IMG/VR virus record: IMGVR_UViG_2627853868_000010 | Reading direction: 5' to 3' (one strand) | DNA from: a virus | Lineage: Duplodnaviria > Heunggongvirae > Uroviricota > Caudoviricetes | Length of the DNA: 11,563 bases | Shown: positions 304 through 11,563 of the stretch, piece by piece | How positions within the stretch are numbered: the first letter of the stretch is position 1 | Layout of the letters: every line of letters begins with the position of its first letter | Program-made: the position numbers and the translations under genes | Notes under the pieces: generated by a model | The model's input: the letters and a program-made list of their open reading frames with translations, nothing else | What the model was told of the DNA's origin: nothing | Database searches by the model: none

Positions 304-367
304 TATTAGCTCCTTCTGATGCCATTCTATTTCAGGAAGGAGTGTCCGTTAAACTCAGGCTACCTCA
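1..367 (-). mobile_element. IS3-family insertion sequence (IS600-like), partial copy; the rest of the element lies left of the window
   Basis: Positions 1-367 mirror 3694-4060 in reverse complement: same terminus TGAGGTAGCCTGAGTTTAACGGACACTCC (element end at 367) and an identical 100-aa OrfA. The window starts exactly at the OrfA stop codon. Confidence 0.85.
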
Positions 368-642
368 CTCCCTGGCGGATTTTTGCAGCGAATACAGCAA
401 CACAACCGGACGGGCAACGGCTACGCGCTTCGCGTTCCGTCCAGGCGGTTACGTGGATGATTTGAGATTCTCCGGCACTCAGTGCCAGAAAACGCCACAC
501 AAAGGCCGTTTGTGTGTGTACAAGGTGTGGTATATGATTTACAGCAACCATAACGGCTCCTAGTTTACGTTGTTGGTTAGACGCCCCGTATGTGTTCCCA
601 GCACTGCGGGGCGTTGCTCTTTGTATTTCAACAATCCTTTCG

Positions 643-722
643 GTGTGTTTCATGTTATGAGCGCATGAAACACACGTCAAGGCTTTTTGTATTTCTTTTT
701 TTGTGTATACTGAAACACACCG
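643..722 (+). promoter_or_regulatory. Candidate promoter/operator of the RHH gene: 12-bp perfect inverted repeat plus a third half-site over a -10-like hexamer
   Basis: GTGTGTTTCATG (643-654) and CATGAAACACAC (664-675) form a perfect inverted repeat with a 9-bp spacer. TGAAACACAC recurs at 711-720, overlapping TATACT (706-711). AGGAG at 729-733 precedes the ATG at 742. The -35 is weak. Confidence 0.3.
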
Positions 723-741
723 ATGATTAGGAGTTTCAGAA

Positions 742-1047
742 ATGGCAACGGCTAACAAAAACGCAAAATCACAACTGACAACTGTCAGAGTCCCACTAGA
801 TGTTATGCAAGGGATGGAATCCGTTAAGCTGGACGGTGAAAGCAATGCCGGATTTATCGTAACCGCCATGCGCGGAGAAATGGCCCGCCGCCAAGCAGAA
901 GGCAGCGGAGAAAATCCCCTTGTGTCGTCACTGGATGCCCTGGCTAAGGTCGAACAAATCGGCATCAAAGCAGCCGAGGAGATCGGGCAACTCGTCACCG
1001 TCGCGCGTGAAGAACTCCAGCGACGCAAGGTCAAAGAGCATGAATAG
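742..1047 (+). CDS. Ribbon-helix-helix (Arc/MetJ/CopG-like) DNA-binding protein with a C-terminal extension; hypothetical
   Basis: 101-aa ORF with an AGGAG RBS 8 nt upstream. The N-terminal segment TTVRVPLDVMQGMESVKLDGESNAGFIVTAM fits the RHH beta-strand/helix/G-x-S-x-N turn/helix pattern (compare Arc EENGRSVNSEIYQRV). Assigned from motif pattern only. Confidence 0.55.
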   Translation: MATANKNAKSQLTTVRVPLDVMQGMESVKLDGESNAGFIVTAMRGEMARRQAEGSGENPLVSSLDALAKVEQIGIKAAEEIGQLVTVAREELQRRKVKEHE

Positions 1048-1104
1048 CCAATATCAGCGCCATAGTTTGAGGAACGCAGGCGCATTGCTTTACAGGACAG
1101 CACC

Positions 1105-1284
1105 ATGAGCGACACAGAATCAACCAAAACACCATCACCAACTCGTAAGAGACGACGCAAAAATATAGCGCATGAACATGAATCAGAAAGATTCGCACCT
1201 TGTTCGTTTGCTCTTGAGAAATTCCTTAAAGAGCACAGGAAAAAGCTCTCGTTGCAAACCTTGGAACGAACCAAATCTGACTGA
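1105..1284 (+). CDS. Small basic hypothetical protein (59 aa), probably co-transcribed with the RHH gene
   Basis: ATG at 1105 with AGGA about 6 nt upstream; translation MSDTESTKTPSPTRKRRRKNIAHEHESERFAPCSFALEKFLKEHRKKLSLQTLERTKSD; stop at 1282-1284. Too short for the supplied ORF track; a + strand terminator lies downstream. Confidence 0.3.
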   Translation: MSDTESTKTPSPTRKRRRKNIAHEHESERFAPCSFALEKFLKEHRKKLSLQTLERTKSD

Positions 1285-1350
1285 TCACATTGCCCACCAG
1301 CCGCAAATGTGGCATTGTTGGTGATGCTTTTGTTTTCCCTTGTTCCCACT

Positions 1351-1380
1351 GGCGACCCTTTTGCGGTCGCCTTTGTTTTG
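1351..1380 (+). terminator. Rho-independent terminator for the + strand two-gene operon
   Basis: GGCGACC-CTTTTGC-GGTCGCC hairpin followed by TTTGTTTTG. Confidence 0.5.
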
Positions 1381-1959
1381 TCACTGAATGCGGTTACCAA
1401 AGTAAAACTCAGGCTGATATTCACGTATCAGCGTTTTTTCTTCTTCCTCCTGCTCACGCTTTTTGCGCTTACATGCCTGTAGCTCCCTCCCCTTCTCGCT
1501 GGCACTTATTTGATATTGCTCTTTACGGCGGGAAAAATCCTGTAATGCACCCCACGGGATACCATAAGTCCCCGTTTTTCTGATACCTGGTATCACATTT
1601 CTGAATACCCAGTTACTGAAACGATGAGCAAATGTGCCAGGCGTCGTTGCTTTGCGGCTGCGGGCTATTAGTTTGTAGAAACCTGACTCAGAGATAATTC
1701 TCATATTCTGATTTCCTCCTGGGGTGTAAGTTAAATTTACTCCCTTTTCATCATCATCAAGCATCTGCAACGCCGTACGCGAATTGGTTAGTTCCAGCGC
1801 AGCACAAACATCTTTTGCAACAAACCACGGATCGCCGTTCAGATACACCACACGAACGTTCACACTATCAAAGCGCAGAACGACGAGATCACGAATATCG
1901 CAGAATTTTTTCACTGGACGAGCGTACCCCTTGCCCGTCACGGCAATATTTTTATTCAT
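1381..1959 (-). CDS. Bro-N domain protein (phage antirepressor-like)
   Basis: 192-aa ORF; the N-terminal region VVYLNGDPWFVAKDVCAALELTNSRTALQMLDDDEKGV...MRIISESGFYKLIARSRKA...FRNVIPGIRKTGTY matches the Bro-N signature (EPWFVAKDV, DEDEKG, ISESGLY, IRKTG); C-terminal part is charged. Confidence 0.75.
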   Translation of the reverse strand: MNKNIAVTGKGYARPVKKFCDIRDLVVLRFDSVNVRVVYLNGDPWFVAKDVCAALELTNSRTALQMLDDDEKGVNLTYTPGGNQNMRIISESGFYKLIARSRKATTPGTFAHRFSNWVFRNVIPGIRKTGTYGIPWGALQDFSRRKEQYQISASEKGRELQACKRKKREQEEEEKTLIREYQPEFYFGNRIQ

Positions 1960-1974
1960 CGCGTTTTTACCTTA

Positions 1975-2002
1975 TAGACAAAAAACCCCTCGTGATGAGG
2001 GG
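1975..2002 (-). terminator. Candidate intrinsic terminator between alpA and the Bro-N gene (minus strand)
   Basis: On the minus strand, hairpin CCCCTC-ATCAC-GAGGGG (plus 1986-2002) followed by TTTTTGTCTAT, lying between the alpA stop (2016) and the Bro-N start (1959). Confidence 0.45.
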
Positions 2003-2015
2003 CATTATTTACTGG

Positions 2016-2273
2016 TTATTGCTGTTTTGTTTTTCCAGGTTTCCATCCAGGATGCCACTCACCACGGATCCATGCCTGAACCTCTGAAAGTCGATACCCT
2101 GCAGCACGTTCACCGATCTTGATACGTCGCGGGAATTTACCTGCCTGCTCCATTTTCCAGCGTGTTGAGTTTGCCAGCGTGGTAAGTGCTATGCACTCTT
2201 TTTCACGAATGAACCGATCAATGTCCTTCATTGTGCGCAAATCGTTTTCATCAACAAGAGAATAAATTGCCAT
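2016..2273 (-). CDS. alpA: AlpA-family prophage transcriptional regulator (HTH, excisionase-like)
   Basis: 85-aa ORF; ALTTLANSTRWKMEQAGKFPRRIKIGERAAGYRLSEVQAWI matches the AlpA/Phage_AlpA pattern. Its ATG at 2273 is 1 nt from the integrase stop (TGA at 2275-2277). Confidence 0.8.
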   Translation of the reverse strand: MAIYSLVDENDLRTMKDIDRFIREKECIALTTLANSTRWKMEQAGKFPRRIKIGERAAGYRLSEVQAWIRGEWHPGWKPGKTKQQ

Positions 2274-2427
2274 ATCACACCACCTCTTTATTAAGCTCGA
2301 TAACGTTGTTGTTAAATCCTGCTATCGTATTAAGGTAATTAACCCACATATTAAGCACCTCAAGTTTTTTCTTTATATGCCTGCTTTTATTGTAAACACC
2401 AGCAACCCCTTTCACTTTATGACCTAA

Positions 2428-2436
2428 AAGAAGTTC
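2428..2436. repeat. 9-bp target-site duplication AAGAAGTTC of IS1 (left copy)
   Basis: Identical 9-mer at 2428-2436 and 3205-3213, directly flanking IS1. Confidence 0.9.
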
Positions 2437-2451
2437 GGTAATGACTCCAAC

Positions 2452-2955
2452 TTATTGATAGTGTTTTATGTTCAGATAATGCCCGATGACTTTGTCATGC
2501 AGCTCCACCGATTTTGAGAACGACAGCGACTTCCGTCCCAGCCGTGCCAGGTGCTGCCTCAGATTCAGGTTATGCCGCTCAATTCGCTGCGTATATCGCT
2601 TGCTGATTACGTGCAGCTTTCCCTTCAGGCGGGATTCATACAGTGGCCAGCCATCCGTCATCCATATCACCACGTCAAAGGGTGACAGCAAGCTCATAAG
2701 ACGCCCCAGCGTCGCCATAGTGCGTTCACCGAATACGTGCGCAACAACCGTCTTCCGGAGCCTGTCATACGCGTAAAACAGCCAGCGCTGGCGCGATTTA
2801 GCCCCGACGTATCCCCACTGTTCGTCCATTTCCGCGCAGACGATGACGTCACTGCCCGGCTGTATGCGCGAGGTTACCGACTGCGGCCTGAGTTTTTTAA
2901 GTGACGTAAAATCGTGTTGAGGCTAACGCCCATAATGCGTGCAGTTGCCCGGCAT
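2452..2955 (-). CDS. insB: IS1 InsB frame (made as the InsAB' fusion by -1 frameshift)
   Basis: The track ORF 2452-2829 encodes the canonical InsB C-terminal 125 aa ([16 protein letters not shown]...NIKHYQ). The frame extends upstream to about 2955. An in-frame TAG replaces the Trp codon of HYGRW, but this lies upstream of the frameshift site and need not inactivate InsAB'. Confidence 0.7.
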
Positions 2956-3149
2956 CCAACGCCATTCATGGCCATATCAATAATTTTCTGGTGCGTACCG
3001 GGTTGAGAAGCGGTGTAAGTGAACTGCAGTTGCCATGTTTTACGGCAGTGAGAGCAGAGATAGCGCTGATGTCCGGCAGTGCTTTTGCCGTTACGCACCA
3101 CCCCGTCAGTAGCTGAACAGGAGGGACAGCTGATAGAAACAGAAGCCAC
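2874..3149 (-). CDS. insA: IS1 InsA (transposition repressor / N-terminal part of InsAB' transposase)
   Basis: 91-aa [43 protein letters not shown]... (zinc-finger CPSC/CSHC); ends in the A6C frameshift window. Differs from the other copy at several residues (e.g. GVSLNT vs GVGLNT). Confidence 0.9.
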
Positions 3150-3204
3150 TGGAGCACCTCAAAAACACCATCATACACTAAATCAGTAAGTTGGCAGCAT
3201 CACC

Positions 3205-3213
3205 AAGAAGTTC
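3205..3213. repeat. 9-bp target-site duplication AAGAAGTTC of IS1 (right copy)
   Basis: Same 9-mer as 2428-2436. Confidence 0.9.
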
Positions 3214-3757
3214 GACAATATAAGGATCCGCCCCCATATCATTAAGCGTAGTGGAAAATGTGCGCCTGAAATCATGTATGCACCACAAGCCATTAGTATC
3301 ATGACCAAGACGCCTGCATATTCTGTTTGCAGCCCCTGTTATTGTCGCCCTTTGCAAAGCACAACCGACAACATAACCGCGATTTTTTGTTTCTGCGTAA
3401 AGATTAACGATCCATTGTTTTATTCCGTCAGGAACAGGCCTTACTATAGCCTCCTTGTTTTTGCTGTGCTCTTTTGGGACTGTCCATACCCAGTTTTTTA
3501 AATCCCATTCGTCCCAGGTGGATAGCCTCGCCTCCTGCTGTCGGCAACCAAACACCAGGCAGATAACCATTATTCTTCGGTTATATATTGATGACAGAGT
3601 TAGCAAATTATTACCGTAAGCATAAGACCATACATCAGCGGTTTCATTGATATTAAGAACGCGATCCCTTATACCGGATGAGCGCCCGACATATGAGGTA
3701 GCCTGAGTTTAACGGACACTCCTTCCTGAAATAGAATGGCATCAGAAGGAGCTAATA

Positions 3758-4060
3758 ATGAGCAGAAAAAACCAACGTTACTCTAAAGAGTTCAAAGCCG
3801 AAGCTGTCAGAACGGTTCTTGAAAATCAACTTTCGATCAGTGAAGGCGCTTCCCGATTATCCCTTCCTGAAGGCACTTTAGGACAATGGGTTACCGCCGC
3901 CAGAAAAGGGCTCGGTACTCCTGGTTCCCGCACGGTGGCTGAACTGGAATCTGAAATTCTGCAACTGCGTAAGGCGTTAAATGAAGCTCGCCTTGAGCGA
4001 GATATATTAAAAAAAGCAACAGCGTATTTTGCACAGGAGTCGCTGAAAAATACGCGTTAA
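3758..4060 (+). CDS. IS3-family transposase OrfA
   Basis: 100-aa ORF identical to the one at 1-303; AGGAG RBS upstream of the ATG. Confidence 0.9.
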   Translation: MSRKNQRYSKEFKAEAVRTVLENQLSISEGASRLSLPEGTLGQWVTAARKGLGTPGSRTVAELESEILQLRKALNEARLERDILKKATAYFAQESLKNTR

Positions 4061-4095
4061 TCGAACAATGGCGACAACAATTTCCCATTGAAGCG

Positions 4096-4914
4096 ATGTG
4101 TCAGGTATTTGGTGTATCCAGGAGCGGTTATTACAACTGGGTACAGCATGAACCCTCAGACAGAAAACAAAGTGATGAGCGGCTAAAACTGGAGATTAAG
4201 GTGGCACATATCCGCACTCGCGAAACATATGGAACCCGGCGGCTCCAGACGGAGCTGGCAGAGAATGGCATCATCGTTGGTCGTGACCGACTGGCACGTC
4301 TTCGTAAGGAGCTAAGGCTACGCTGTAAGCAGAAACGCAAGTTCAGAGCGACTACGAACCCGAACCACAATCTGCCAGTTGCGCCAAATCTGCTGAACCA
4401 GACGTTCGCTCCTACAGCACCAAATCAGGTCTGGGTGGCGGACCTGACGTATGTTGCCACACAGGAGGGATGGTTGTACCTCGCTGGCATCAAAGATGTT
4501 TATACGTGCGAAATTGTCGGCTACGCCATGGGAGAGCGCATGACAAAAGAGCTGACAGGTAAAGCCCTGTTTATGGCGCTCAGGAGCCAGCGCCCACCTG
4601 CCGGGCTAATCCACCACTCTGATCGAGGTTCACAGTACTGCGCATACGATTACCGGGTCATACAGGAGCAGTCTGGTCTGAAAACATCAATGTCGCGTAA
4701 AGGTCACTGTTACGACAACGCTCCGATGGAAAGCTTCTGGGGAACGCTGAAAAATGAGAGCCTGAGCCACTATCGTTTTAATAACCGGGATGAAGCCATC
4801 TCAGTAATACGGGAATACATTGAGATTTTCTACAATCGTCAGCGTCGTCACTCTCGTCTGGGGAATATCTCCCCGGCAGCCTTCAGGGAAAAATATCATC
4901 AGATGGCTGCTTAA
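4096..4914 (+). CDS. IS3-family transposase OrfB (DDE integrase-like catalytic domain; probably made as OrfAB by -1 frameshift)
   Basis: 272-aa ORF with DDE-type motifs (VWVADLTYV, HHSDRGSQY, CYDNAPMESFWGTLK); its frame begins just after the OrfA stop. Confidence 0.85.
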   Translation: MCQVFGVSRSGYYNWVQHEPSDRKQSDERLKLEIKVAHIRTRETYGTRRLQTELAENGIIVGRDRLARLRKELRLRCKQKRKFRATTNPNHNLPVAPNLLNQTFAPTAPNQVWVADLTYVATQEGWLYLAGIKDVYTCEIVGYAMGERMTKELTGKALFMALRSQRPPAGLIHHSDRGSQYCAYDYRVIQEQSGLKTSMSRKGHCYDNAPMESFWGTLKNESLSHYRFNNRDEAISVIREYIEIFYNRQRRHSRLGNISPAAFREKYHQMAA

Positions 4915-4938
4915 AAAAAGAACAAATGGTAGTGTCCG

Positions 4939-6327
4939 CTATTGCCAGTACACCTCACAGTACATTGACCAGGATTTCGAGCTGTTATTTTTCTCAATTC
5001 GCAGAGCTTTATTGCCGCTGTCATCAACCAGTGTGCGTCTGCCATACATACCGTCCCAGCCATAAGGTTTCAGCTGATTGTCTGTAGCTTTTTTGGCATC
5101 GTAAAAAATTACAGACTCTGAGGTGGTAACCGGCCTGTCTGGAACAACCACCCCGGCAGTACCATTAACAAACGCAGAAGACTTACCCGCGCAGCTCAGA
5201 ATCGCCGTTGCCAGACGGTCGGAAATAATCCCACGGCGAGCCCATGAACTGAAATGGCTCGCCCTGTCCTGTGACGTCCAGGTGGCTGAGCTGTCACGCC
5301 ATTTCGAACCGTAATAACCGATACCCGGAATGTCCGGGTCTTCTTCCGGTTTGTTCGTCGGCACATTCACCCCGTTCTCATCGGTCATGAACGGTACGAA
5401 ATGGATATTCTTTTCCGTTTTATTTTTATAGCTGCCGTACACCGTCTGGTACGTGGATTCGTTCTTCTGCTTCCAGAAATACGTCGTGTCCCCGCATATC
5501 CAGGGAACACCGCCAGCAGAGCCACCGACGCACTGGCCTGCCATATCCGCCAGGTCTGCACGGAATTTATCAACCAGCGCACCAAACTGTGCGGCATGAT
5601 TTGCCGGCGTACCGCCAAAATCAAATTCCCCCTGCATCCACACCACGGCAAACAGCACATTTTTCGGGTTCTTCTCCAGTGCCGCTTTTGTTCGACCGAT
5701 AAGGTCCTTATACAGCGGCTTGTCCACACCCCAGCGGGTTGAATTCTCCGAGGCACCACTCGCGTCACTGTATGTGCCATCAGCTCCGGTGGTGAACGCT
5801 GAACCACCACGACAGCATGGAACCAGCAGAATGCCCGCATTCGCCGGTATAAACGGCAGCAGTTTTTTGGCGATATGCAGCCCCTGCCCCACGGTTCCGT
5901 ACTGCCCCTTTGACAGGTCCGCTTTCGGATGGTTAAGACGGCTCATGTCCTGCACATCATGCAGACAATGGTCCGCCGGAATGATGTCGTTATATTTGCA
6001 TGCTGCACCGCCCGGTGTCACCGTACTGCGACGCGCCAGTTGCTTAATACGCGGGTCCGGACGGTCATATGTCCCCGGCAGCGGAAGGCCTTCACCATAC
6101 GACATGCCGTTTGACTGCCCTGCCAGAACCACAACAAAGTAATACTCCGGGTCGCTGGTGGCGCTGATTACTGCACCTTCTGCTGCAATCGCCTGCATCA
6201 GAGTATAAGGGGTTATGGCCACCGGACTACCAAACGGCTGCCAGCCCTCTTTCAGTTTATGTGTCAGCTTTTCCGCAAGATCTGACGGCGACGCCGCCCT
6301 GACAACATCATAGTGTTTAAAAGCCAT
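4939..6327 (-). CDS. nanS: Prophage sialate O-acetylesterase (NanS-p-like; DUF1737 N-domain plus SGNH/DUF303 esterase domain), 3'-truncated by IS600
   Basis: 462-aa ORF with GGAGG RBS. Motifs VLAGQSNGMSYGEGLPLP, RIKQLARRSTVTPGG, YGTVGQ, LLPFIP, VPCCRGGSAFT, SHFSSWARRGIISDR match NanS/YjhS-type esterases as I recall them. The last 6 codons (CEVYWQ) and the stop are read from the IS600 end (4939-4957). Confidence 0.8.
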   Translation of the reverse strand: MAFKHYDVVRAASPSDLAEKLTHKLKEGWQPFGSPVAITPYTLMQAIAAEGAVISATSDPEYYFVVVLAGQSNGMSYGEGLPLPGTYDRPDPRIKQLARRSTVTPGGAACKYNDIIPADHCLHDVQDMSRLNHPKADLSKGQYGTVGQGLHIAKKLLPFIPANAGILLVPCCRGGSAFTTGADGTYSDASGASENSTRWGVDKPLYKDLIGRTKAALEKNPKNVLFAVVWMQGEFDFGGTPANHAAQFGALVDKFRADLADMAGQCVGGSAGGVPWICGDTTYFWKQKNESTYQTVYGSYKNKTEKNIHFVPFMTDENGVNVPTNKPEEDPDIPGIGYYGSKWRDSSATWTSQDRASHFSSWARRGIISDRLATAILSCAGKSSAFVNGTAGVVVPDRPVTTSESVIFYDAKKATDNQLKPYGWDGMYGRRTLVDDSGNKALRIEKNNSSKSWSMYCEVYWQ

Positions 6328-6521
6328 GAATCCTCCCGGCCGGGATAATATTGTGAGTAAAATGAGGAGCGGGCTGAAGTCCGGAAGTTACAGGACAATG
6401 GCAGAAGAGAGACGACAGCCCGCAATTCGAAAAAGACCGCGCAGTTGCGCAGAGTGATTACTATGGGGTATTATTCGCCAGCTGAAATATTACTTCACGT
6501 TTTGTTGTTTATTCCTTGCCG

Positions 6522-6549
6522 CCCGCGTCTCCCAGCGCGGGCTTTTTTT
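6522..6549 (+). terminator. Intrinsic terminator-like hairpin plus T-tract on the + strand
   Basis: CCCGCG-TCTCCCAG-CGCGGG followed by CTTTTTTT. Confidence 0.4.
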
Positions 6550-6776
6550 GCCCACAAGAAAGCCCCTCCGGAGAGGGGCTGGAGAGTGGCGCTATGTGCC
6601 ATTGCATGGTGCCGGGTGCCTCCCGGTGAATTCAGTACCAGCACCTGAATCCGCGATTATCCCATATACCTACTCGCTGATTGCCCCTCCGCACAGGGGG
6701 ATTCACCATGCCAGTTTCTTTTAACAAACTCCCCGCAAACCAGACAACAGTCAACCGTCTGAATTGTGAGACATTT

Positions 6777-6801
6777 AAAAAAAAAGCCCGCAAAAGCGAG
6801 C
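6777..6801 (-). terminator. Strong Rho-independent terminator just downstream of the tRNA cluster (minus strand)
   Basis: On the minus strand, GCTCGC-TTTT-GCGGGC hairpin (one G-U pair) followed by nine T, starting 15 nt after the 3' end of tRNA-Arg(UCU). Confidence 0.55.
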
Positions 6802-6816
6802 CAGGGAAAATAAGTG

Positions 6817-6893
6817 TGGCGCGTTGTACTGGATTCGAACCAGTGACCGATTGCTTAGAAGGCAATTGCTCTGTCCGGCTGAGCTAACAACGC
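6817..6893 (-). tRNA. argO: tRNA-Arg (anticodon UCU), prophage-encoded
   Basis: Minus-strand 77-nt cloverleaf GCGTTGT-TA-GCTC-AGCCGGACA-GAGC-A-ATTGC-CTTCTAA-GCAAT-CGGTC-ACTGG-TTCGAAT-CCAGT-ACAACGC-G-CCA. Perfect 7-bp acceptor stem, encoded CCA. Gene symbol assigned by position in the cluster. Confidence 0.85.
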
Positions 6894-6906
6894 ATGATGC
6901 AGATAA

Positions 6907-6983
6907 TGGACCGCCATCGGGGACTTGAACCCCGCGCAGCCAGCTTCGAAGGCTGGCGCTCTTTCCTGATGAGCTAATGGCGG
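6907..6983 (-). tRNA. argN: tRNA-Arg (anticodon UCG), prophage-encoded
   Basis: Minus-strand 77-nt cloverleaf CCGCCAT-TA-GCTC-ATCAGGAAA-GAGC-G-CCAGC-CTTCGAA-GCTGG-CTGCG-CGGGG-TTCAAGT-CCCCG-ATGGCGG-T-CCA. Gene symbol assigned by position in the cluster. Confidence 0.8.
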
Positions 6984-6990
6984 TATGTGA

Positions 6991-7066
6991 TGGTGGCCCT
7001 TGCTGGATTTGAACCAGCGACCTGGCGATTATGAGTCGCTCGCTCTCACCACTGAGCTAAAGGGCC
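6991..7066 (-). tRNA. ileZ: tRNA-Ile2 (anticodon CAU, ileX-like; reads AUA after lysidine modification), prophage-encoded
   Basis: Minus-strand 76-nt sequence GGCCCTTTAGCTCAGTGGTGAGAGCGAGCGACTCATAATCGCCAGGTCGCTGGTTCAAATCCAGCAAGGGCCACCA, near-identical to E. coli ileX as I recall it; anticodon loop CTCATAA. Confidence 0.85.
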
Positions 7067-7075
7067 GGGAGCCGC

Positions 7076-7104
7076 ATAATAACGACTCGTAATTAATTCT
7101 TCAA
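7076..7104 (-). promoter_or_regulatory. Candidate sigma70 promoter for the tRNA cluster
   Basis: On the minus strand, TTGAAG, a 17-bp spacer, then TATTAT, ending 9 nt before the 5' end of tRNA-Ile2; the -35 lies directly after the methyltransferase stop codon. Confidence 0.45.
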
Positions 7105-7106
7105 TA

Positions 7107-8124
7107 TCATCCGTTCTGGCTGACTAAATCCTGTACTTCCCGAACCGTCTGCTCAAAACGTTCAGTCTCCAGCTCAACGCCAATTGCACGACGCCCGAGC
7201 GCCAGTGCCGCTTTCACTGTCGAACCCGACCCCATGAAAAAATCTGCAATCAGGTCACCCGGACGACTGCTAGCGCTGATTATCTGCTGCAGCATTTCTG
7301 CCGGTTTTTCGCACGGATGTTTCCCGGGATAGAACTGCACCGGTTTATGCGTCCACACATCGGTATACGGCACCTGCACCGTCACGCCAAAATACCGCCG
7401 CAGATGTTTATATTCACTCAGCAGCTCCGCATACTGCCGGTTCAGTGAGGTATACGTATCCACCAGCTGGTGGTGGAGCTTTTCCAGTTCACCACGCCGA
7501 TGCTTCTCTTCTGCCACCCGGGCAAACAGCGCCTGTAATTTCAGATAATCGCTTTCATTCGGCAACTGCCACTGACTGGCACTGAACCAGTGCGACACCA
7601 TGTTTTTCTTTCCTGTGGCATCTGCAATCTGTTTTGCCGTTATCCCCAGGGCAGCTCGCGCATCACGAAAGTAAGAAATCAGCGGGGCCATCACATGCTG
7701 TTTCAGTGCACTGCCCTTCGCCGCATACCCGGCATCTTTCGGACGATACGGCCCCTGATAATGTTCCGCGAACAGAATGCGCTCTGTGGCGGGGAAATAC
7801 GCCCGCAGGCTTTCCTTGTTGCATCCGTTCCAGCGTCCGGACGGCTTCGCCCAGATAATATGGTTCAGCACACTGAAGCGTTCACGCATCATGATTTCGA
7901 TATCAGATGCCAGGCGATGACCACAGAACAGGTAAAGACTTCCGGCAGGTTTCAGCACCCGCCAGAACTGCGCCAGACACTGGTCCAGCCACTTCAGGTA
8001 ATCATCGTCGCCCTTCCACTGGTTATCCCAGCCCTCAGGCTTCACTTTAAAGTACGGCGGGTCCGTGACTATCAGGTCAACAGAATTTTCGGGTAACGAC
8101 CAGATAAATTCCAGGCAGTCGGCG
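7107..8124 (-). CDS. DNA N6-adenine/N4-cytosine methyltransferase (beta-class; DPPY precedes FxGxG), prophage Dam-like orphan MTase; native 5' end removed by IS1
   Basis: Native coding sequence starts at the IS1 junction with ADCLEFIWSLPENSVDLIVTDPPYF (motif IV) and ends with DLIADFFMGSGST...GRRAIGVELE (motif I). No native start codon remains; the frame stays open upstream through IS1/IS2 sequence to 8282. Confidence 0.8.
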
Positions 8125-8142
8125 GGTAATGACTCCAACTTA

Positions 8143-8147
8143 CTGAT
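8143..8147. repeat. 5-bp target-site duplication CTGAT of IS2 (left copy; right copy at 9479-9483)
   Basis: CTGAT immediately flanks both IS2 ends; both copies lie within IS1 terminal sequence. Confidence 0.85.
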
Positions 8148-8238
8148 TAGACTGGCCCCCTGAATCTCCAGACAACCAGTATCACTTAAATAAGTGATAG
8201 TCTTAATACTAGTTTTTAGACTAGTCATTGGAGTACAG

Positions 8239-8604
8239 ATGATTGATGTCTTAGGGCCGGAGAAACGCAGACGGCGTACCACACAGGAAAAGATCGCAAT
8301 TGTTCAGCAGAGCTTTGAACCGGGGATGACGGTCTCCCTCGTTGCCCGGCAACATGGTGTAGCAGCCAGCCAGTTATTTCTCTGGCGTAAGCAATACCAG
8401 GAAGGAAGTCTTACTGCTGTGGCCGCCGGAGAACAGGTTGTTCCTGCCTCTGAACTTGCTGCCGCCATGAAGCAGATTAAAGAACTCCAGCGCCTGCTCG
8501 GCAAGAAAACGATGGAAAATGAACTCCTCAAAGAAGCCGTTGAATATGGACGGGCAAAAAAGTGGATAGCGCACGCGCCCTTATTGCCCGGGGATGGGGA
8601 GTAA
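8239..8604 (+). CDS. insC: IS2 transposase OrfA (InsC)
   Basis: [56 protein letters not shown]... matches IS2 InsC as recalled; ATG at 8239. Confidence 0.9.
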
Positions 8605-9467
8605 GCTTAGTCAGCCGTTGTCTCCGGGTGTCGCGTGCGCAGTTGCACGTCATTCTCAGACGAACCGATGACTGGATGGATGGCCGCCGCAGTCGTCACA
8701 CTGATGATACGGATGTGCTTCTCCGTATACACCATGTTATCGGAGAGCTGCCCACGTATGGTTATCGTCGGGTATGGGCGCTGCTTCGCAGACAGGCAGA
8801 ACTTGATGGTATGCCTGCGATCAATGCCAAACGTGTTTACCGGATCATGCGCCAGAATGCGCTGTTGCTTGAGCGAAAACCTGCTGTACCGCCATCGAAA
8901 CGGGCACATACAGGCAGAGTGGCCGTGAAAGAAAGCAATCAGCGATGGTGCTCTGACGGGTTCGAGTTCTGCTGTGATAACGGAGAGAGACTGCGTGTCA
9001 CGTTCGCGCTGGACTGCTGTGATCGTGAGGCACTGCACTGGGCGGTGACTACCGGCGGCTTCAACAGTGAAACAGTACAGGACGTCATGCTGGGAGCGGT
9101 GGAACGCCGCTTCGGCAACGATCTTCCGTCGTCTCCAGTGGAGTGGCTGACGGATAATGGTTCATGCTACCGGGCTAATGAAACACGCCAGTTCGCCCGG
9201 ATGTTGGGACTTGAACCGAAGAACACGGCGGTGCGGAGTCCGGAGAGTAACGGAATAGCAGAGAGCTTCGTGAAAACGATAAAGCGTGACTACATCAGTA
9301 TCATGCCCAAACCAGACGGGTTAACGGCAGCAAAGAACCTTGCAGAGGCGTTCGAGCATTATAACGAATGGCATCCGCATAGTGCGCTGGGTTATCGCTC
9401 GCCACGGGAATATCTGCGGCAGCGGGCTTGTAATGGGTTAAGTGATAACAGATGTCTGGAAATATAG
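8562..9467 (+). CDS. insD: IS2 transposase OrfB (InsD; DDE catalytic domain)
   Basis: 301-aa [33 protein letters not shown]...WLTDNGSCY...[12 protein letters not shown], matching IS2 InsD as recalled; overlaps insC in the -1 frame. Confidence 0.9.
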
Positions 9468-9979
9468 GGGCAAATCCACTGATAGTGTTTTATGTTCAGA
9501 TAATGCCCGATGACCTTGTCATGCAGCTCCACCGATTTTGAGAACGACAGTGACTTCCGTCCCAGCCTTGCCAGATGTTGTCTCAGATTCAGATTATGTC
9601 GCTCAATGCGCTGAGTGTAACGCTTGCTGATAACGTGCAGCTTTCCCTTCAGGCGTGATTCATACAGCGGCCAGCCATCCGTCATCCATACCACGACCTC
9701 AAAGGCCGACAGCAGGCTCAGAAGACGCTCCAGTGTGGCCAGAGTGCGTTCACCGAAGACGTGCGCCACAACCGTCCTCCGTATCCTGTCATACGCGTAA
9801 AACAGCCAGCGCTGACGTGATTTAGCACCGACGTAGCCCCACTGTTCGTCCATTTCAGCGCAGACAATCACATCACTGCCCGGTTGTATGCGCGAGGTTA
9901 CCGACTGCGGCCTGAGTTTTTTAAGTGACGTAAAACCGTGTTGAGGCCAACGCCCATAATGCGTGCACTGGCGCGACAT
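9392..9979 (-). CDS. insB: IS1 InsB (copy 2) with its stop codon lost to the IS2 insertion; the ORF reads 31 extra codons into IS2
   Basis: 195-aa ORF ...[44 protein letters not shown]...NIKHYQ followed by [28 protein letters not shown] read from the IS2 right end. The native InsB part is 9479-9979. Confidence 0.8.
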
Positions 9980-10173
9980 CCGACGCCATTCATGGCCATA
10001 TCAATGATTTTCTGGTGCGTACCGGGCTGAGAGGCGGTGTAAGTGAACTGTAGTTGCCATGTTTTACGGCAATGAGAGCAGAGATAGCGCTGATGTCCGG
10101 CAGTGCTTTTGCCGTTACGCACCACGCCTTCAGTAGCGGAGCAGGAAGGACATCTGATGGAAATGGAAGCCAC
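9898..10173 (-). CDS. insA: IS1 InsA (copy 2, divergent isoform)
   Basis: 91-aa [43 protein letters not shown]...; differs from the copy at 2874-3149 at several residues. Confidence 0.9.
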
Positions 10174-10228
10174 GCAAGCACCTTAAAATCACCATCATAC
10201 ACTAAATCAGTAAGTTGGCAGCATTACC

Positions 10229-10476
10229 CGCTCGACGAGTGGAAACCAAAACGGTTCAGTCTCCCAATAACAAACACTACCCTGGTGAAATACGGAAAAC
10301 TAGGATACATCGTTCCAAGACCACAAAAAATTCGTGGGCGTTGGCTGATAGATCGCCGAGCAGTATTTGTTGGGCCTGGTGAAACGGGAATTGCGCCGGA
10401 AATTCATACTGGCGATGATGATGCACTGAAGGAGATTTTAACTCATGTCACCGAGGCCACAAAAAAACAGCACTGA
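10229..10476 (+). CDS. xis: Lambda-type excisionase (Xis)-like, 5'-truncated at the IS1 junction
   Basis: Native sequence from 10229 reads (P)LDEWKPKRFSLPITNTTLVKYGKLGYIVPRPQKIRGRWLIDRRAVFV..., which aligns with lambda Xis (MYLTLQEWNARQRRPRSLETVRRWVRECRIFPPPVKDGREYLF) as recalled. About 4 N-terminal codons and the start are missing. The 3' end overlaps the int start as in lambda. Confidence 0.55.
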
Positions 10477-11563
10477 CGTAGCCGGTCTTTACGAAAAGTT
10501 TGATCGCAGAACTGGCAGAGTTTACTACCAGTATAAAAATCCTGTGACTGGAAAATTTCACGGACTCGGAACAGACAAAGGTAAGGCAGAAAAAATCGCT
10601 TCCACAGCCAATCAGCGAATAGCTGCAGCAGAAGCTGAATATTTCATGCGCAAAATTGATGAAAGTCCGTCAGCAACAAAACGTCGGGGTATCAGATTAA
10701 AGGCATGGGTTGATCGATATCTGAAAATACAGGACACGCGACTGAAAAATGGAGATATTGCAGCTACAACTCACAAAGAAAAAACTCGAATGGCTGCATA
10801 CCTAGTTTCCCGTCTGGGAAACCACCCATTGAAAGAACTGGAAGTAAGAGACTTTGCATTAATACTGGATGAGTGGCTGGATAAAGACATGGTCAGCACA
10901 GCGAGAGTAAATCGTGGATTATGGGTTGATATTTATAAAGAAGCACAGCATGCAGGGGAAGTTCCTCCTGGATGGAATCCTCCGGAGGCTACCCGTAAAC
11001 CGATCCCTAAAGTAACCAGAGCCAGGCTCACCATGGAAGACTGGCAAAAAATTTACAATGCAACGCCTGAAAAACACTTTATCCGTAACGCAATGCTTCT
11101 TGCGATTGTTACTGGTCAGCGCCGTGATGACATTTGCCACATGCGTTTTTCAGATGTGTGGAACGAACACTTGCATATCACCCAGGGAAAAACCGGAATG
11201 CGTCTGGCGTTACCGCTTACACTACGCTGTGATGCCATTGGGATAACGTTAAAAGAAGTTATTGATGGGTGCCGAGACAGAATATTAAGTCCATATCTAA
11301 TCCATAGTCGGCACCAGAAACAACCGAAGCCGATGAGTAAAGACAACCTGAGCGACTACTTTGCCAAAGCACGGGATCTGGCTGGGATAATTCCACCAGC
11401 AGGAAAAACTCCGCCAACATTTCATGAACAACGCTCTCTATCAGAACGGCTGTACCGTGCACAGGGTATCGATACAAAAACATTACTAGGACATAAAGTC
11501 CAGGCAACCACCGATCGCTATAACGATACTCGAGGTCAGGAATGGGTTAAGCTGGTTATTTGA
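10445..11563 (+). CDS. int: Lambda-family tyrosine integrase (site-specific recombinase), complete
   Basis: 372-aa ORF with AGGAG RBS. N-terminal YYQYKNPVTGKFHGLGTDK, central LAIVTGQRRDDICHMRFSDV, and C-terminal PPTFHEQRSLSERLY...LLGHKVQATTDRYNDTRGQEWVKLVI match lambda/HK022 Int (R, H-x-x-R, LLGH, catalytic Y) as recalled. The window ends at its stop codon. Confidence 0.9.
   Translation: MSPRPQKNSTDVAGLYEKFDRRTGRVYYQYKNPVTGKFHGLGTDKGKAEKIASTANQRIAAAEAEYFMRKIDESPSATKRRGIRLKAWVDRYLKIQDTRLKNGDIAATTHKEKTRMAAYLVSRLGNHPLKELEVRDFALILDEWLDKDMVSTARVNRGLWVDIYKEAQHAGEVPPGWNPPEATRKPIPKVTRARLTMEDWQKIYNATPEKHFIRNAMLLAIVTGQRRDDICHMRFSDVWNEHLHITQGKTGMRLALPLTLRCDAIGITLKEVIDGCRDRILSPYLIHSRHQKQPKPMSKDNLSDYFAKARDLAGIIPPAGKTPPTFHEQRSLSERLYRAQGIDTKTLLGHKVQATTDRYNDTRGQEWVKLVI

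Follow-up and report, generated by a model that had tools for sequence, protein, structure and literature searches.

A probable remnant of a toxin-free lambdoid prophage in Shigella, trimmed by insertion sequences and with an unoccupied cargo point between the tRNA operon and nanS-p

Gene order and the flanking genes

The window (the whole stretch of DNA analyzed; 11,563 bp) is 100% identical to the Shigella contig AMJS01000078.1 and 99.92% identical to CP049281, which was reported as Shigella boydii (PMC7545283). On the minus strand of the window, a DNA methyltransferase (MTase) gene is followed by a tRNA with the anticodon CAU, a tRNA-Arg (UCG), a tRNA-Arg (UCU), a stretch of 489 bp without a protein-family match (6328-6816), and the nanS-p gene. 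This order (MTase, tRNAs of the ileZ, argN, and argO types, and nanS-p) had been proposed in the first-pass annotation, and ARAGORN, Rfam, and Pfam bore it out.

The MTase gene (MTase'; 7107-8124, minus strand) is truncated at its 5' end and encodes an N6_N4-class DNA methyltransferase. PF01555 (N6_N4_Mtase; 4e-43) was its only Pfam match, the NCBIfam matches of the YhdJ/CcrM type fell below the cut-offs, and the DPPY motif was present in the protein alignment. The earlier label "Dam-like" placed the enzyme in the wrong family, as no Dam-family domain (we take this family to be Pfam MethyltransfD12, PF02086) was found among the Pfam matches. At the DNA level, homology with the phage MTase gene ends at 8124, beyond which the frame stays open within insertion sequence (IS) DNA up to 8282, and protein homology starts at ADCLEFI; approximately the first 14 codons and the upstream region have been lost. 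Identity with the prophage rRNA methyltransferase of PMC10810198 was considered and rejected; that enzyme, which is encoded elsewhere in the phage, is of the MT-A70 type and has a DPPW motif, whereas PF01555 and DPPY were found here.

The nanS-p gene (nanS-p'; 4939-6327, minus strand, start at 6327) encodes a sialate O-acetylesterase with the Pfam domains DUF1737 (1.2e-15) and SASA (2.6e-11) and is truncated at its C-terminal end. The open reading frame has 462 residues, compared with 621-649 in relatives, and its last codons come from the edge of an IS600 copy, where homology ends (at approximately residue 380-455). Across the retained part, the protein is 82-84% identical to annotated NanS/yjhS proteins; against the 649-residue yjhS/NanS of a Stx2a phage, it is 84% identical over 449 columns, after which the two diverge and the window protein stops short.

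The tRNA operon lies between these two genes on the same strand. The first tRNA (6991-7066; Rfam, 72.5 bits) was labeled Met (CAT) by ARAGORN and is annotated as ileZ or tRNA-Ile in the matching records. In tRNA-Ile2 of the ileZ type, the CAU anticodon reads as Ile after lysidine modification, and the acceptor-stem pairs C4-G69 and C5-G68 are determinants for TilS; both pairs are readable from the sequence of this tRNA. The argN-type tRNA-Arg (UCG; 6907-6983; ARAGORN and Rfam, 58 bits) and the argO-type tRNA-Arg (UCU; 6817-6893; ARAGORN and Rfam, 70.1 bits) follow. In alignment A1 (six sequences), the CAU tRNA was invariant, the argO-type tRNA was the same as in five of the six comparator sequences, and the argN-type tRNA varied more across phages than the other two. 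The promoter-like site TTGAAG-17-TATTAT (7104-7076, minus strand), located immediately ahead of the first tRNA, was the sole sigma-70-like site within 6000-7500, and its hexamers were mostly kept in alignment A1. The first-pass annotation had the MTase stop abutting the tRNA promoter, and the MTase frame (end at 7107) indeed ends next to this site, which is a promoter by consensus match only. A terminator-like site (6785-6802, minus strand; stem GGCTCGC/GCGGGCT, then T9) closes the operon and was conserved throughout alignment A1. Among the papers searched, none linking ileZ, argN, and argO with stx was found.

Small RNA genes upstream of nanS-p

The 489 bp between the tRNAs and nanS-p had been described as about 480 bp of non-coding DNA. 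This description held for proteins, as no protein gene was present, but not for RNA, as an sRNA gene of the STnc100 family was found at 6550-6740 (minus strand). The match to Rfam RF02076 scored 139.4 bits (gathering score, 47; E = 2e-31) and covered model positions 1-206 of 206, a terminator is located at 6580-6561 (minus strand), and a STnc100 match was present at the homologous position in all comparators (five other loci). By sequence, this gene is the apparent homologue of EcOnc05 (Sakai prophage Sp4) and EcOnc27 (Sakai prophage Sp5), and is related to PasD. A possible promoter motif, TTGTCT-18-TAAAAG, was read by eye and is kept in alignment A2. Note that the Northern sizes in Sakai (approximately 222-247 nt) are larger than the distance from this motif to the STnc100 terminator.

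The remainder of the interval (6328-6549) forms the nanS-p leader region. On its plus strand, a terminator-like site (6521-6542) is followed by a T-run that continues to 6549. Against Sakai Sp4, the region has a handful of mismatches (approximately 97% identity by eye, alignment A3), and the homologous A/U-run coincides with the start of the EcOnc08 peak (position 1179938 on the minus strand, from Table S2 of PMC4104026); this mapping assumes equal coordinates at approximately 1.18 Mb in the Sakai version of PMC4104026 and in NC_002695.2, which differ by about 137 bp at 1.268 Mb. Assuming that the coordinates agree, the plus-strand element converging on the STnc100 gene would be the counterpart of EcOnc08, an Hfq-bound antisense RNA, and the leader region is listed here with a putative EcOnc08/EcOnc21 counterpart on the basis of the terminator and the Sp4 alignment.

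Other candidates for the plus-strand element were rejected. The covariance models of AsxR (RF02703) and AgvB (RF02702), which include a conserved 3' region of about 42 nt, gave no match at E <= 1 within 6300-7150, although they did detect AsxR in Sp5 (88 bits) and AgvB in the prophage of E. coli EH031 (96.5 bits), and the terminator stem is different from that of these anti-sRNAs. The OmrA-B match at 6461-6549 was weak (23.7 bits; gathering score, 40) and looks like a chance match driven by the terminator. PasA and PasC were placed by the Pas-sRNA preprint (10.64898/2026.05.13.724894) between the esterase and holin genes, which is another position. The leader also contains a terminator-like hairpin on the minus strand, CTGCGCAACTGCGCGG (6437-6452), followed by a T-run, and this hairpin is kept in all comparators, Sp5 included. 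By eye, TTGCGC on the plus strand of the hairpin could be spaced as a -35 element for TATTAT in the window, and likewise for the TAAAAT that precedes AsxR in Sp5.

Convergent sRNAs between the moron coding sequence and a conserved downstream open reading frame were described by Tree et al. 2014 (PMC4104026), who listed EcOnc05/EcOnc08 for Sp4 and EcOnc27/AsxR for Sp5, and the homologous RNAs were Hfq-bound and expressed in O157 Sakai (PMC4104026). In the Stx2 phages of two strains, STnc100 follows the stx2 operon at a distance of 75 nt (PMC12370729). The window has the late-strand sRNA between the cargo point (see below) and the conserved downstream frame, as in the moron-site layout of PMC4104026; the location downstream of Q and PR' is found in the intact relatives but not in the window, where both have been deleted. 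The sRNA genes at this place had already been described.

The cargo point and the question of stx

Alignment across the junction puts the 1,332-bp stx2AB cassette of Stx2 phages precisely at window position 6774/6775. This unoccupied cargo ("moron") point has the argO terminator on one side and the sRNA module on the other. The Stx2 phage Stx2_12E129_PPompW (LC567841) has the order Q, small open reading frame, MTase, ileZ-argN-argO, cargo point, STnc100, nanS-p, and holin; window 6776-8124 aligns with it at 94.4% and window 5901-6773 at 78.8%, with stx2AB exactly between them (these two stretches correspond to 5484-6833 and 3202-4151, respectively, of locus L001). Other occupants of the point were a 28-bp filler (phage vB_EcoP_phi296) and genes for TerB and DUF3927 proteins (E. 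coli EH031).

The first-pass annotation had reported that no stxA- or stxB-like frame lies between the tRNAs and nanS-p, and the searches agreed with it: blastn with stx2AB (word size 7) and tblastn with Stx2A and Stx2B gave only chance matches in the whole window (E >= 0.55), no match inside 6328-7106, and no residual stx sequence at 6774/6775, while loci L001 and L012, used as positive controls, scored 100% and 99%. Its statement that the backbone flanks stx in Stx phages also stood, as the same order brackets stx2AB in many Stx2 phages (for example, LC567841). The late-leader backbone, (MTase)-ileZ-argN-argO followed by nanS-p, is present in the window but is not specific to Stx phages. The stx-less segment was contiguous in 902 of the 5,426 complete E. 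coli genomes (approximately 1 in 6; identity up to 98.1%), and the top genome matches were single-piece alignments at 96.5-98.1%. Stx2 phages matched at approximately 88% over 6328-6773 and at approximately 94% over the tRNA part.

Among the relatives, Sakai Sp4 has ileZ1-argN1-argO1, approximately 490 bp, and the nanS-p homologue ECs_1088 without stx; its intergenic stretch is approximately 97% identical to that of the window by eye, its STnc100 match scores 138 bits (139 in the window), and Hfq-bound RNAs were mapped on both strands of the stretch. Sp4 differs in that a gene for an AraC-family regulator, and not the MTase gene, lies upstream of the tRNAs, identity in the nanS-p body is lower (82% over 5196-7069), and the prophage is near-complete, whereas the window holds an IS-trimmed fragment. 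Stx2a phages with the MTase gene, such as LC567841, are 94.4% identical to the window in the MTase/tRNA part and 96.7% in the nanS-p body, but carry the stx2AB cassette, Q, and lysis genes and are only approximately 79-88% identical in the sRNA and leader part. Sakai Sp5 (Stx2a; presumably of the 933W type) shares the tRNA operon, the cargo point, the STnc100-type EcOnc27, a short convergent RNA, and nanS-p (ECs_1207); it differs in the presence of stx2AB and in having AsxR as the convergent RNA, and it keeps approximately the last 110 bp of the MTase gene upstream of ileZ instead of a full one. In vB_EcoP_phi296, a complete phage genome, the tRNAs run directly into the sRNA module and NanS without toxin genes, as in the window; the identity is 89.8%, the filler follows the argO terminator, and the MTase is reduced to a 33-residue fragment. 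TL-2011a and PPwrbA_EH2201/EC3734 gave the same match pattern as phi296 over the whole 779 bp (stx absence was checked in phi296 only). The prophage next to potC in E. coli EH031 occupies the same chromosomal site as the window remnant and has a similar late design (a DUF1133 Q-like gene, MTase, tRNAs, cargo point, STnc100, and SASA esterase), but has the TerB-family and DUF3927 genes at the cargo point, AgvB as the convergent RNA, and a degenerate argN, and its late region is 74-86% identical (86% in the MTase/tRNA part).

The first-pass annotation had left two alternatives, a stx-negative relative or a remnant that lost stx, and the former is the one supported. For the latter, no stx scar was found at the junction, and the nearest full-length relatives have no stx at this locus; moreover, the segment matches intact non-stx lambdoid phages over its full length, an outcome that had been named in advance as refuting a loss of stx. 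Derivation from a Shiga-toxin phage, with a clean deletion of stxAB before or during decay in Shigella, is very improbable. Such an origin would fit the backbone that Stx2 phages have in common and the 96.7% identity of the nanS-p body to a Stx2a phage, but no stx remnant was found in the window, the same junction occurs in hundreds of stx-less prophages, Sakai Sp4 included, and the intergenic stretch is 97-98% identical to that of stx-less prophages versus approximately 79-88% for Stx2 phages. The flanks are mosaic (the nanS-p body and the intergenic part have different closest relatives), and therefore no single tree applies. ATCTG is present at both ends of the stx2 cassette, and by eye the empty junction loosely resembles a fusion of the two; this resemblance is weak, and a motif of 5 bp is too short to count as evidence. 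Repeated stx loss at related loci was raised as a possibility in the Pas-sRNA preprint, and, judged by sequence, an ancient clean loss followed by spread of the empty allele would be a formal possibility. Nothing at the locus itself suggests toxin loss; the phages bearing stx2AB appear to be a variant in which the cargo point is filled, the unoccupied state being the common default.

Insertion sequences and the origin of the remnant

An IS600 copy (3694-4960, plus strand; orfA 3758-4060, orfB 4096-4914), which is 99.4-99.5% identical to an annotated IS600 of E. coli EH031, truncates nanS-p at the 3' end, and its edge is where homology to the full-length gene ceases. On the other side, the DNA upstream of the MTase gene is IS1 split by IS2 (8125-10228), as assigned from IS1 transposase matches and the alignment of IS1 copies, which align at 9480-10228. 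The IS1 parts are 8125-8148 and approximately 9480-10228, and IS2 (orfA 8194-8604, orfB 8562-9467) occupies approximately 8149-9479; in the window, GGTAATGACTCCAACTTACTGAT is taken as the IS1 end and TAGACTGGCCCC as the IS2 end. Beyond IS1 lie a truncated xis (xis'; residues 9-89 of Xis covered at 100% identity by tblastn) and a lambda-type integrase gene with the Pfam domains Arm-DNA-bind_1 and Phage_integrase (10229-11563, plus strand). The xis-int part is 99.8% identical to that of the EH031 prophage, and potC/potD flank int in loci L005-L010.

The Q antiterminator had been reported as absent, and tblastn of the window with three kinds of Q protein agreed, with nothing below E = 0.17; no holin similarity was found in the window either. 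Q and PR' would be absent because a deletion associated with IS1/IS2 took the part from xis through the 5' end of the MTase gene, so that the absence of Q is most readily explained by this deletion and not by an unusual phage design.

We consider it highly probable that 4961-8124 (approximately 3.2 kb) and xis'-int (10229-11563) are the remains of one toxin-free lambdoid prophage that had integrated next to potC in Shigella (boydii-type). The junctions suggest, with the order of the IS events also reconstructed, that IS1, later hit by IS2, was accompanied by a deletion of the whole early region, including Q and the late promoter PR', and that IS600 would have removed nanS-p from its 3' part onward, along with the lysis and structural genes and whatever else lay beyond. 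The survivor would be a standard late-leader module composed of MTase', the tRNA operon, the cargo point, the convergent sRNA pair, and nanS-p', the predicted pair being of the STnc100/EcOnc05 type on the late strand and of the EcOnc08 type on the opposite strand.

It is unlikely that the int/xis and the MTase-nanS-p fragments came from two different prophages joined by an IS-mediated rearrangement, in which case the absence of Q would say nothing about a single deletion. The region looks like a rearrangement hotspot, with potC on one side, cheA-cheW-tar on the other, and a P4/CP4-57-like fragment and five IS copies within 11.5 kb; however, int is oriented with respect to the late genes as expected for a single lambdoid prophage, and the EH031 prophage combines, at the same site, int/xis of 99.8% identity with the same late design, even though its MTase/tRNA part is only 86% identical.

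In a single-prophage remnant that has lost Q and PR', nanS-p' and MTase' would be beyond late transcription, and only the tRNAs and sRNAs, which have promoter-like sites of their own, could still be expressed. Whether the host keeps the remnant for them, as tRNAs for rare codons (AUA, CGA, and AGA/AGG) with an autonomous promoter and an Hfq-binding sRNA pair that are useful in Shigella, was also considered; AT-rich virulence genes, for example, might benefit. None of the three tRNAs and two RNA elements is damaged, in contrast to the protein genes on the flanks, all of which are truncated; in Sakai, the homologous RNAs are expressed and bound by Hfq; and the 3,164-bp segment has zero base substitutions and only three single-base gaps among the six genomes with the same IS junctions. 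Genomes with so few differences are too alike for selection to be read from them, however, and in the IS-rich genomes of Shigella, chance is expected to leave a 3-kb piece standing between IS copies. We regard such retention as doubtful, and slightly more doubtful still that the S. boydii-type lineage has domesticated the RNA parts as a small regulatory and translational island, kept for its RNAs and not for its proteins.

An interval between the tRNAs and nanS-p without stx is neither a sign of toxin loss nor an empty landing pad. For surveillance, carriage of this locus is no ground for regarding a strain as a former Stx producer. In annotation, the interval deserves labels for the STnc100-family sRNA and its convergent partner, and MTase' and nanS-p' on either side are best annotated as pseudogenes truncated by IS elements.

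Gene order at the tRNA-nanS-p locus

The gene order and the coordinates assigned in the first-pass annotation (a methyltransferase gene, MTase, then three tRNA genes and nanS-p on the minus strand) were both correct according to ARAGORN, Rfam and Pfam. The MTase open reading frame ended at 7107 (minus strand; Pfam N6_N4_Mtase, 4e-43); this family (PF01555) was the sole Pfam match, and the description of the enzyme as Dam-like was not borne out. Identity with the MT-A70 rRNA methyltransferase of PMC10810198 was ruled out, the protein being of PF01555 type with a DPPY motif. The tRNA genes, all on the minus strand and predicted with ARAGORN and Rfam, had the anticodons CAT (6991-7066; 72.5 bits), TCG (tRNA-Arg, argN, 6907-6983; 58 bits) and TCT (tRNA-Arg, argO, 6817-6893; 70.1 bits). 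The CAT tRNA did not vary in the alignment of six related loci, and database records matching this stretch annotate ileZ or tRNA-Ile there. The nanS-p open reading frame started at 6327 (minus strand) and had the NanS-p architecture (Pfam DUF1737 and SASA). Only one sigma-70-like site was found in 6000-7500, a consensus match (TTGAAG-17-TATTAT; 7104-7076, minus strand) directly past the MTase stop, so that the stop does abut a promoter-like site for the tRNA genes, as had been noted.

Among the three tRNAs, only argN was variable: in the Stx2a phage Stx2_12E129 (5614-5690) its anticodon is TCT, versus TCG in the window, and in the EH031 prophage it is degenerate, with just two tRNAs annotated. 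The last ~110 bp of the MTase gene were retained upstream of ileZ in the MTase-less Sakai Sp5, Nil3 and phi296 (window 7107-7217 corresponds to 3615-3725 of our Sp5 locus L012; also in L003, and at 4821-4919 of L002, both from the MTase-less phages). Because these phages still keep the MTase 3' end, 7217 is, on the alignments, a recurrent mosaic boundary; the MTase-less arrangement looks derived.

The cargo point and its occupancy

When the window was aligned with Stx2_12E129 (LC567841), 6776-8124 corresponded to phage positions 5484-6833 (94.4% identity) and 5901-6773 aligned with 3202-4151; the 1,332 bp of phage DNA between the two segments comprised stx2A, stx2B and short flanks. The left edge of this cassette was directly past the T-run of the argO terminator, the right edge was ~45 nt beyond the stx2B stop, and homology resumed at TGT(C/G)TCACAATTCAG, just upstream of the small RNA (sRNA); in the window the two edge points were 2-3 bases apart. 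No stx-derived similarity was detected anywhere in the window at the DNA or protein level (blastn and tblastn; positive controls scored), in agreement with the reported absence of stxA and stxB.

The first-pass annotation had considered a remnant that lost stx. However, the 779-bp segment (6328-7106) matched an intact non-stx lambdoid phage and prophages over its full length, which argues against such a loss. The segment was contiguous (at least 80% of it in one place) in 902 of 5,426 complete E. coli genomes. One-piece, full-length alignments (96.5-98.1% identity) were obtained with the best 30 of these, whereas Stx2 phages gave two separate pieces (6328-6773, ~88%; tRNA part, ~94%). Sp4, a non-Stx lambdoid prophage of O157 Sakai, had exactly the layout of the window, and its intergenic sequence differed from that of the window at only a few positions. 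The complete phage genome vB_EcoP_phi296 (terminase, portal, head, tail, integrase, cI/cro and replication genes), in which no Stx similarity was found, differed in layout solely by a 28-bp filler past the argO terminator; in E. coli EH031, TerB-family and DUF3927 genes occupied the cargo point. Because Sp4, phi296 and these 902 genomes have the stx-less layout and EH031 carries TerB/DUF3927, the cargo point is a variable site, most frequently empty, with stx among the several loads that it can carry.

The TerB/DUF3927 cargo (EH031 prophage, 11985-12000) and the stx2 cassette (Stx2_12E129, ~5470-5483) began with the same ~10 bases, TATCTGCGCC, directly past the argO terminator, and diverged thereafter; this may be a left edge common to different cargos, or chance.

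Small-RNA genes in the interval

The interval between argO and nanS-p, described as about 480 bp of non-coding DNA, was indeed 489 bp long but was not empty: a full-length STnc100 sRNA gene was found at 6550-6740 (minus strand; Rfam, 139.4 bits versus a gathering score of 47), with a terminator-like site at 6580-6561 (minus strand) and, tail-to-tail with it, another at 6521-6542 (plus strand) that leads into a T-run. This is the published design of lambdoid "moron" sites, in which convergent sRNA genes sit between the cargo coding sequence and a conserved downstream open reading frame (Tree et al. 2014, PMC4104026), for example EcOnc27/AsxR past stx2B in Sp5, with similar pairs in Sp3, Sp4, Sp9, Sp10, Sp11, Sp15 and Sp17 (PMC4104026). 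In Stx2 phages STnc100 is reported to follow the stx2 operon at a distance of 75 nt (PMC12370729), and it is related to PasD, which lies directly upstream of a sialate esterase gene (preprint 10.64898/2026.05.13.724894). In our Rfam runs, STnc100 was followed by AsxR in Sp5 and by AgvB in the EH031 potC prophage, and was present at the homologous place in Stx2_12E129, phi296, Nil3, FDAARGOS_1059 and Sp4; within 6300-7150 of the window, the AsxR and AgvB models had no match at E <= 1.

The plus-strand element of the window was nearly identical to Sp4, for which EcOnc05 (plus, ~222 nt) and the convergent EcOnc08/EcOnc21 (minus, ~271 nt) are reported (Table S2, PMC4104026). For EcOnc08, the peak's 3' edge maps onto the homologous U-run, provided that the Sakai coordinates are unshifted there. 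The Sakai homologues are Hfq-bound and Northern-detectable (PMC4104026).

On the strand opposite late transcription, a conserved hairpin had TTGCGC 18 nt upstream of TATTAT (6445-6482, plus strand); the Sp5 counterpart before AsxR (L012 5683-5720, minus strand) had TTGCGC 18 nt upstream of TAAAAT, i.e., equal promoter geometry ahead of unrelated RNA bodies. In the window this geometry would yield a ~69-nt RNA with its 3' end at 6549, a smaller species than the EcOnc08 of ~271 nt. The element contains a G/U-rich run, GUUUUGUUGUUUAUU (6501-6515), whose late-strand complement, AACAACAAAAC, is rich in CA and recalls GcvB seed/target motifs; by contrast, the CACAACA motif of AgvB is on the anti-sRNA strand.

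Decay of the prophage and possible remaining expression

Homology with phage MTase genes ended at 8124, 41 bp before the start codon, and in the protein alignment the ~14 first residues were replaced by IS-derived sequence, with the DPPY motif kept. Beyond this point an IS1 end (8125-8148), an IS2 inside IS1 (~8149-9479) and the IS1 remainder (~9480-10228) were assigned; the termini around 8125-8149 we take to be those of IS1 and IS2. In this nested insertion (8125-10228), a complete IS2 parts the first 24 bp of IS1 from its remainder, and the summed IS1 length of 773 bp (768 + 5) would fit a 5-bp target duplication by IS2. Past IS1, the window retains residues 9-89 of a truncated xis together with a lambda-type int, both 99.8% identical to the EH031 potC-adjacent prophage; in the source genome, int adjoins potC. 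No Q or holin similarity was left in the window (tblastn) and the DNA upstream of the MTase gene was IS1/IS2, consistent with the noted absence of Q. The simplest reading is that an IS1-associated deletion between xis and the 5' end of the MTase gene would have taken the early region, Q and PR'. At the other end, IS600 (3694-4960, plus strand) shortened nanS-p to 462 amino acids (621-649 in relatives).

Positions 360-3693 were a piece of a separate P4/CP4-57-like island with more IS copies, encoding a BRO-N protein, an AlpA regulator and a 354-amino-acid protein whose C-terminus is Icd-like; its integrase piece (3178-3606) adjoins IS1 (2436-3204), and another IS600 end lies at 1-367.

The truncated NanS-p protein was present on 17 contigs. 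The window matched AMJS01000078.1 at 100% identity and CP049281, reported as Shigella boydii (PMC7545283), at 99.92%. Because potC and cheA flank the locus yet are not adjacent in E. coli (the normal potC side is seen in EH031), the site is, as read from gene order, also a rearrangement junction, which suggests that IS elements mediated a chromosomal rearrangement at the decayed prophage. In the source genomes (L005-L010) the locus links potD-potC with cheA-cheW-tar-tap, and in some of these cheA, cheW and tar are broken into several open reading frames.

In an intact phage, Q-modified polymerase from PR' crosses the MTase gene, the tRNA operon, any cargo, the sRNA terminators and nanS-p, and runs on into the lysis genes, as established for lambdoid phages (PMC4104026). 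In the remnant this drive would be lost, and the truncated MTase and nanS-p genes are probably silent pseudogenes. The tRNA operon keeps both its promoter-like site and its terminator, and the STnc100-type gene keeps its terminator and, as read by eye, the conserved motif TTGTCT-18-TAAAAG; judging from these sites, both could still be expressed.

For the module, cargo point and sRNAs alike, published or annotated counterparts are already known, the nearest being Sakai Sp4. Among six genomes the 3,164-bp remnant showed no base substitutions and only three single-base gaps, too little variation to reveal selection. The sole reading with some novelty is that the fragment may be kept by Shigella for its RNA genes.
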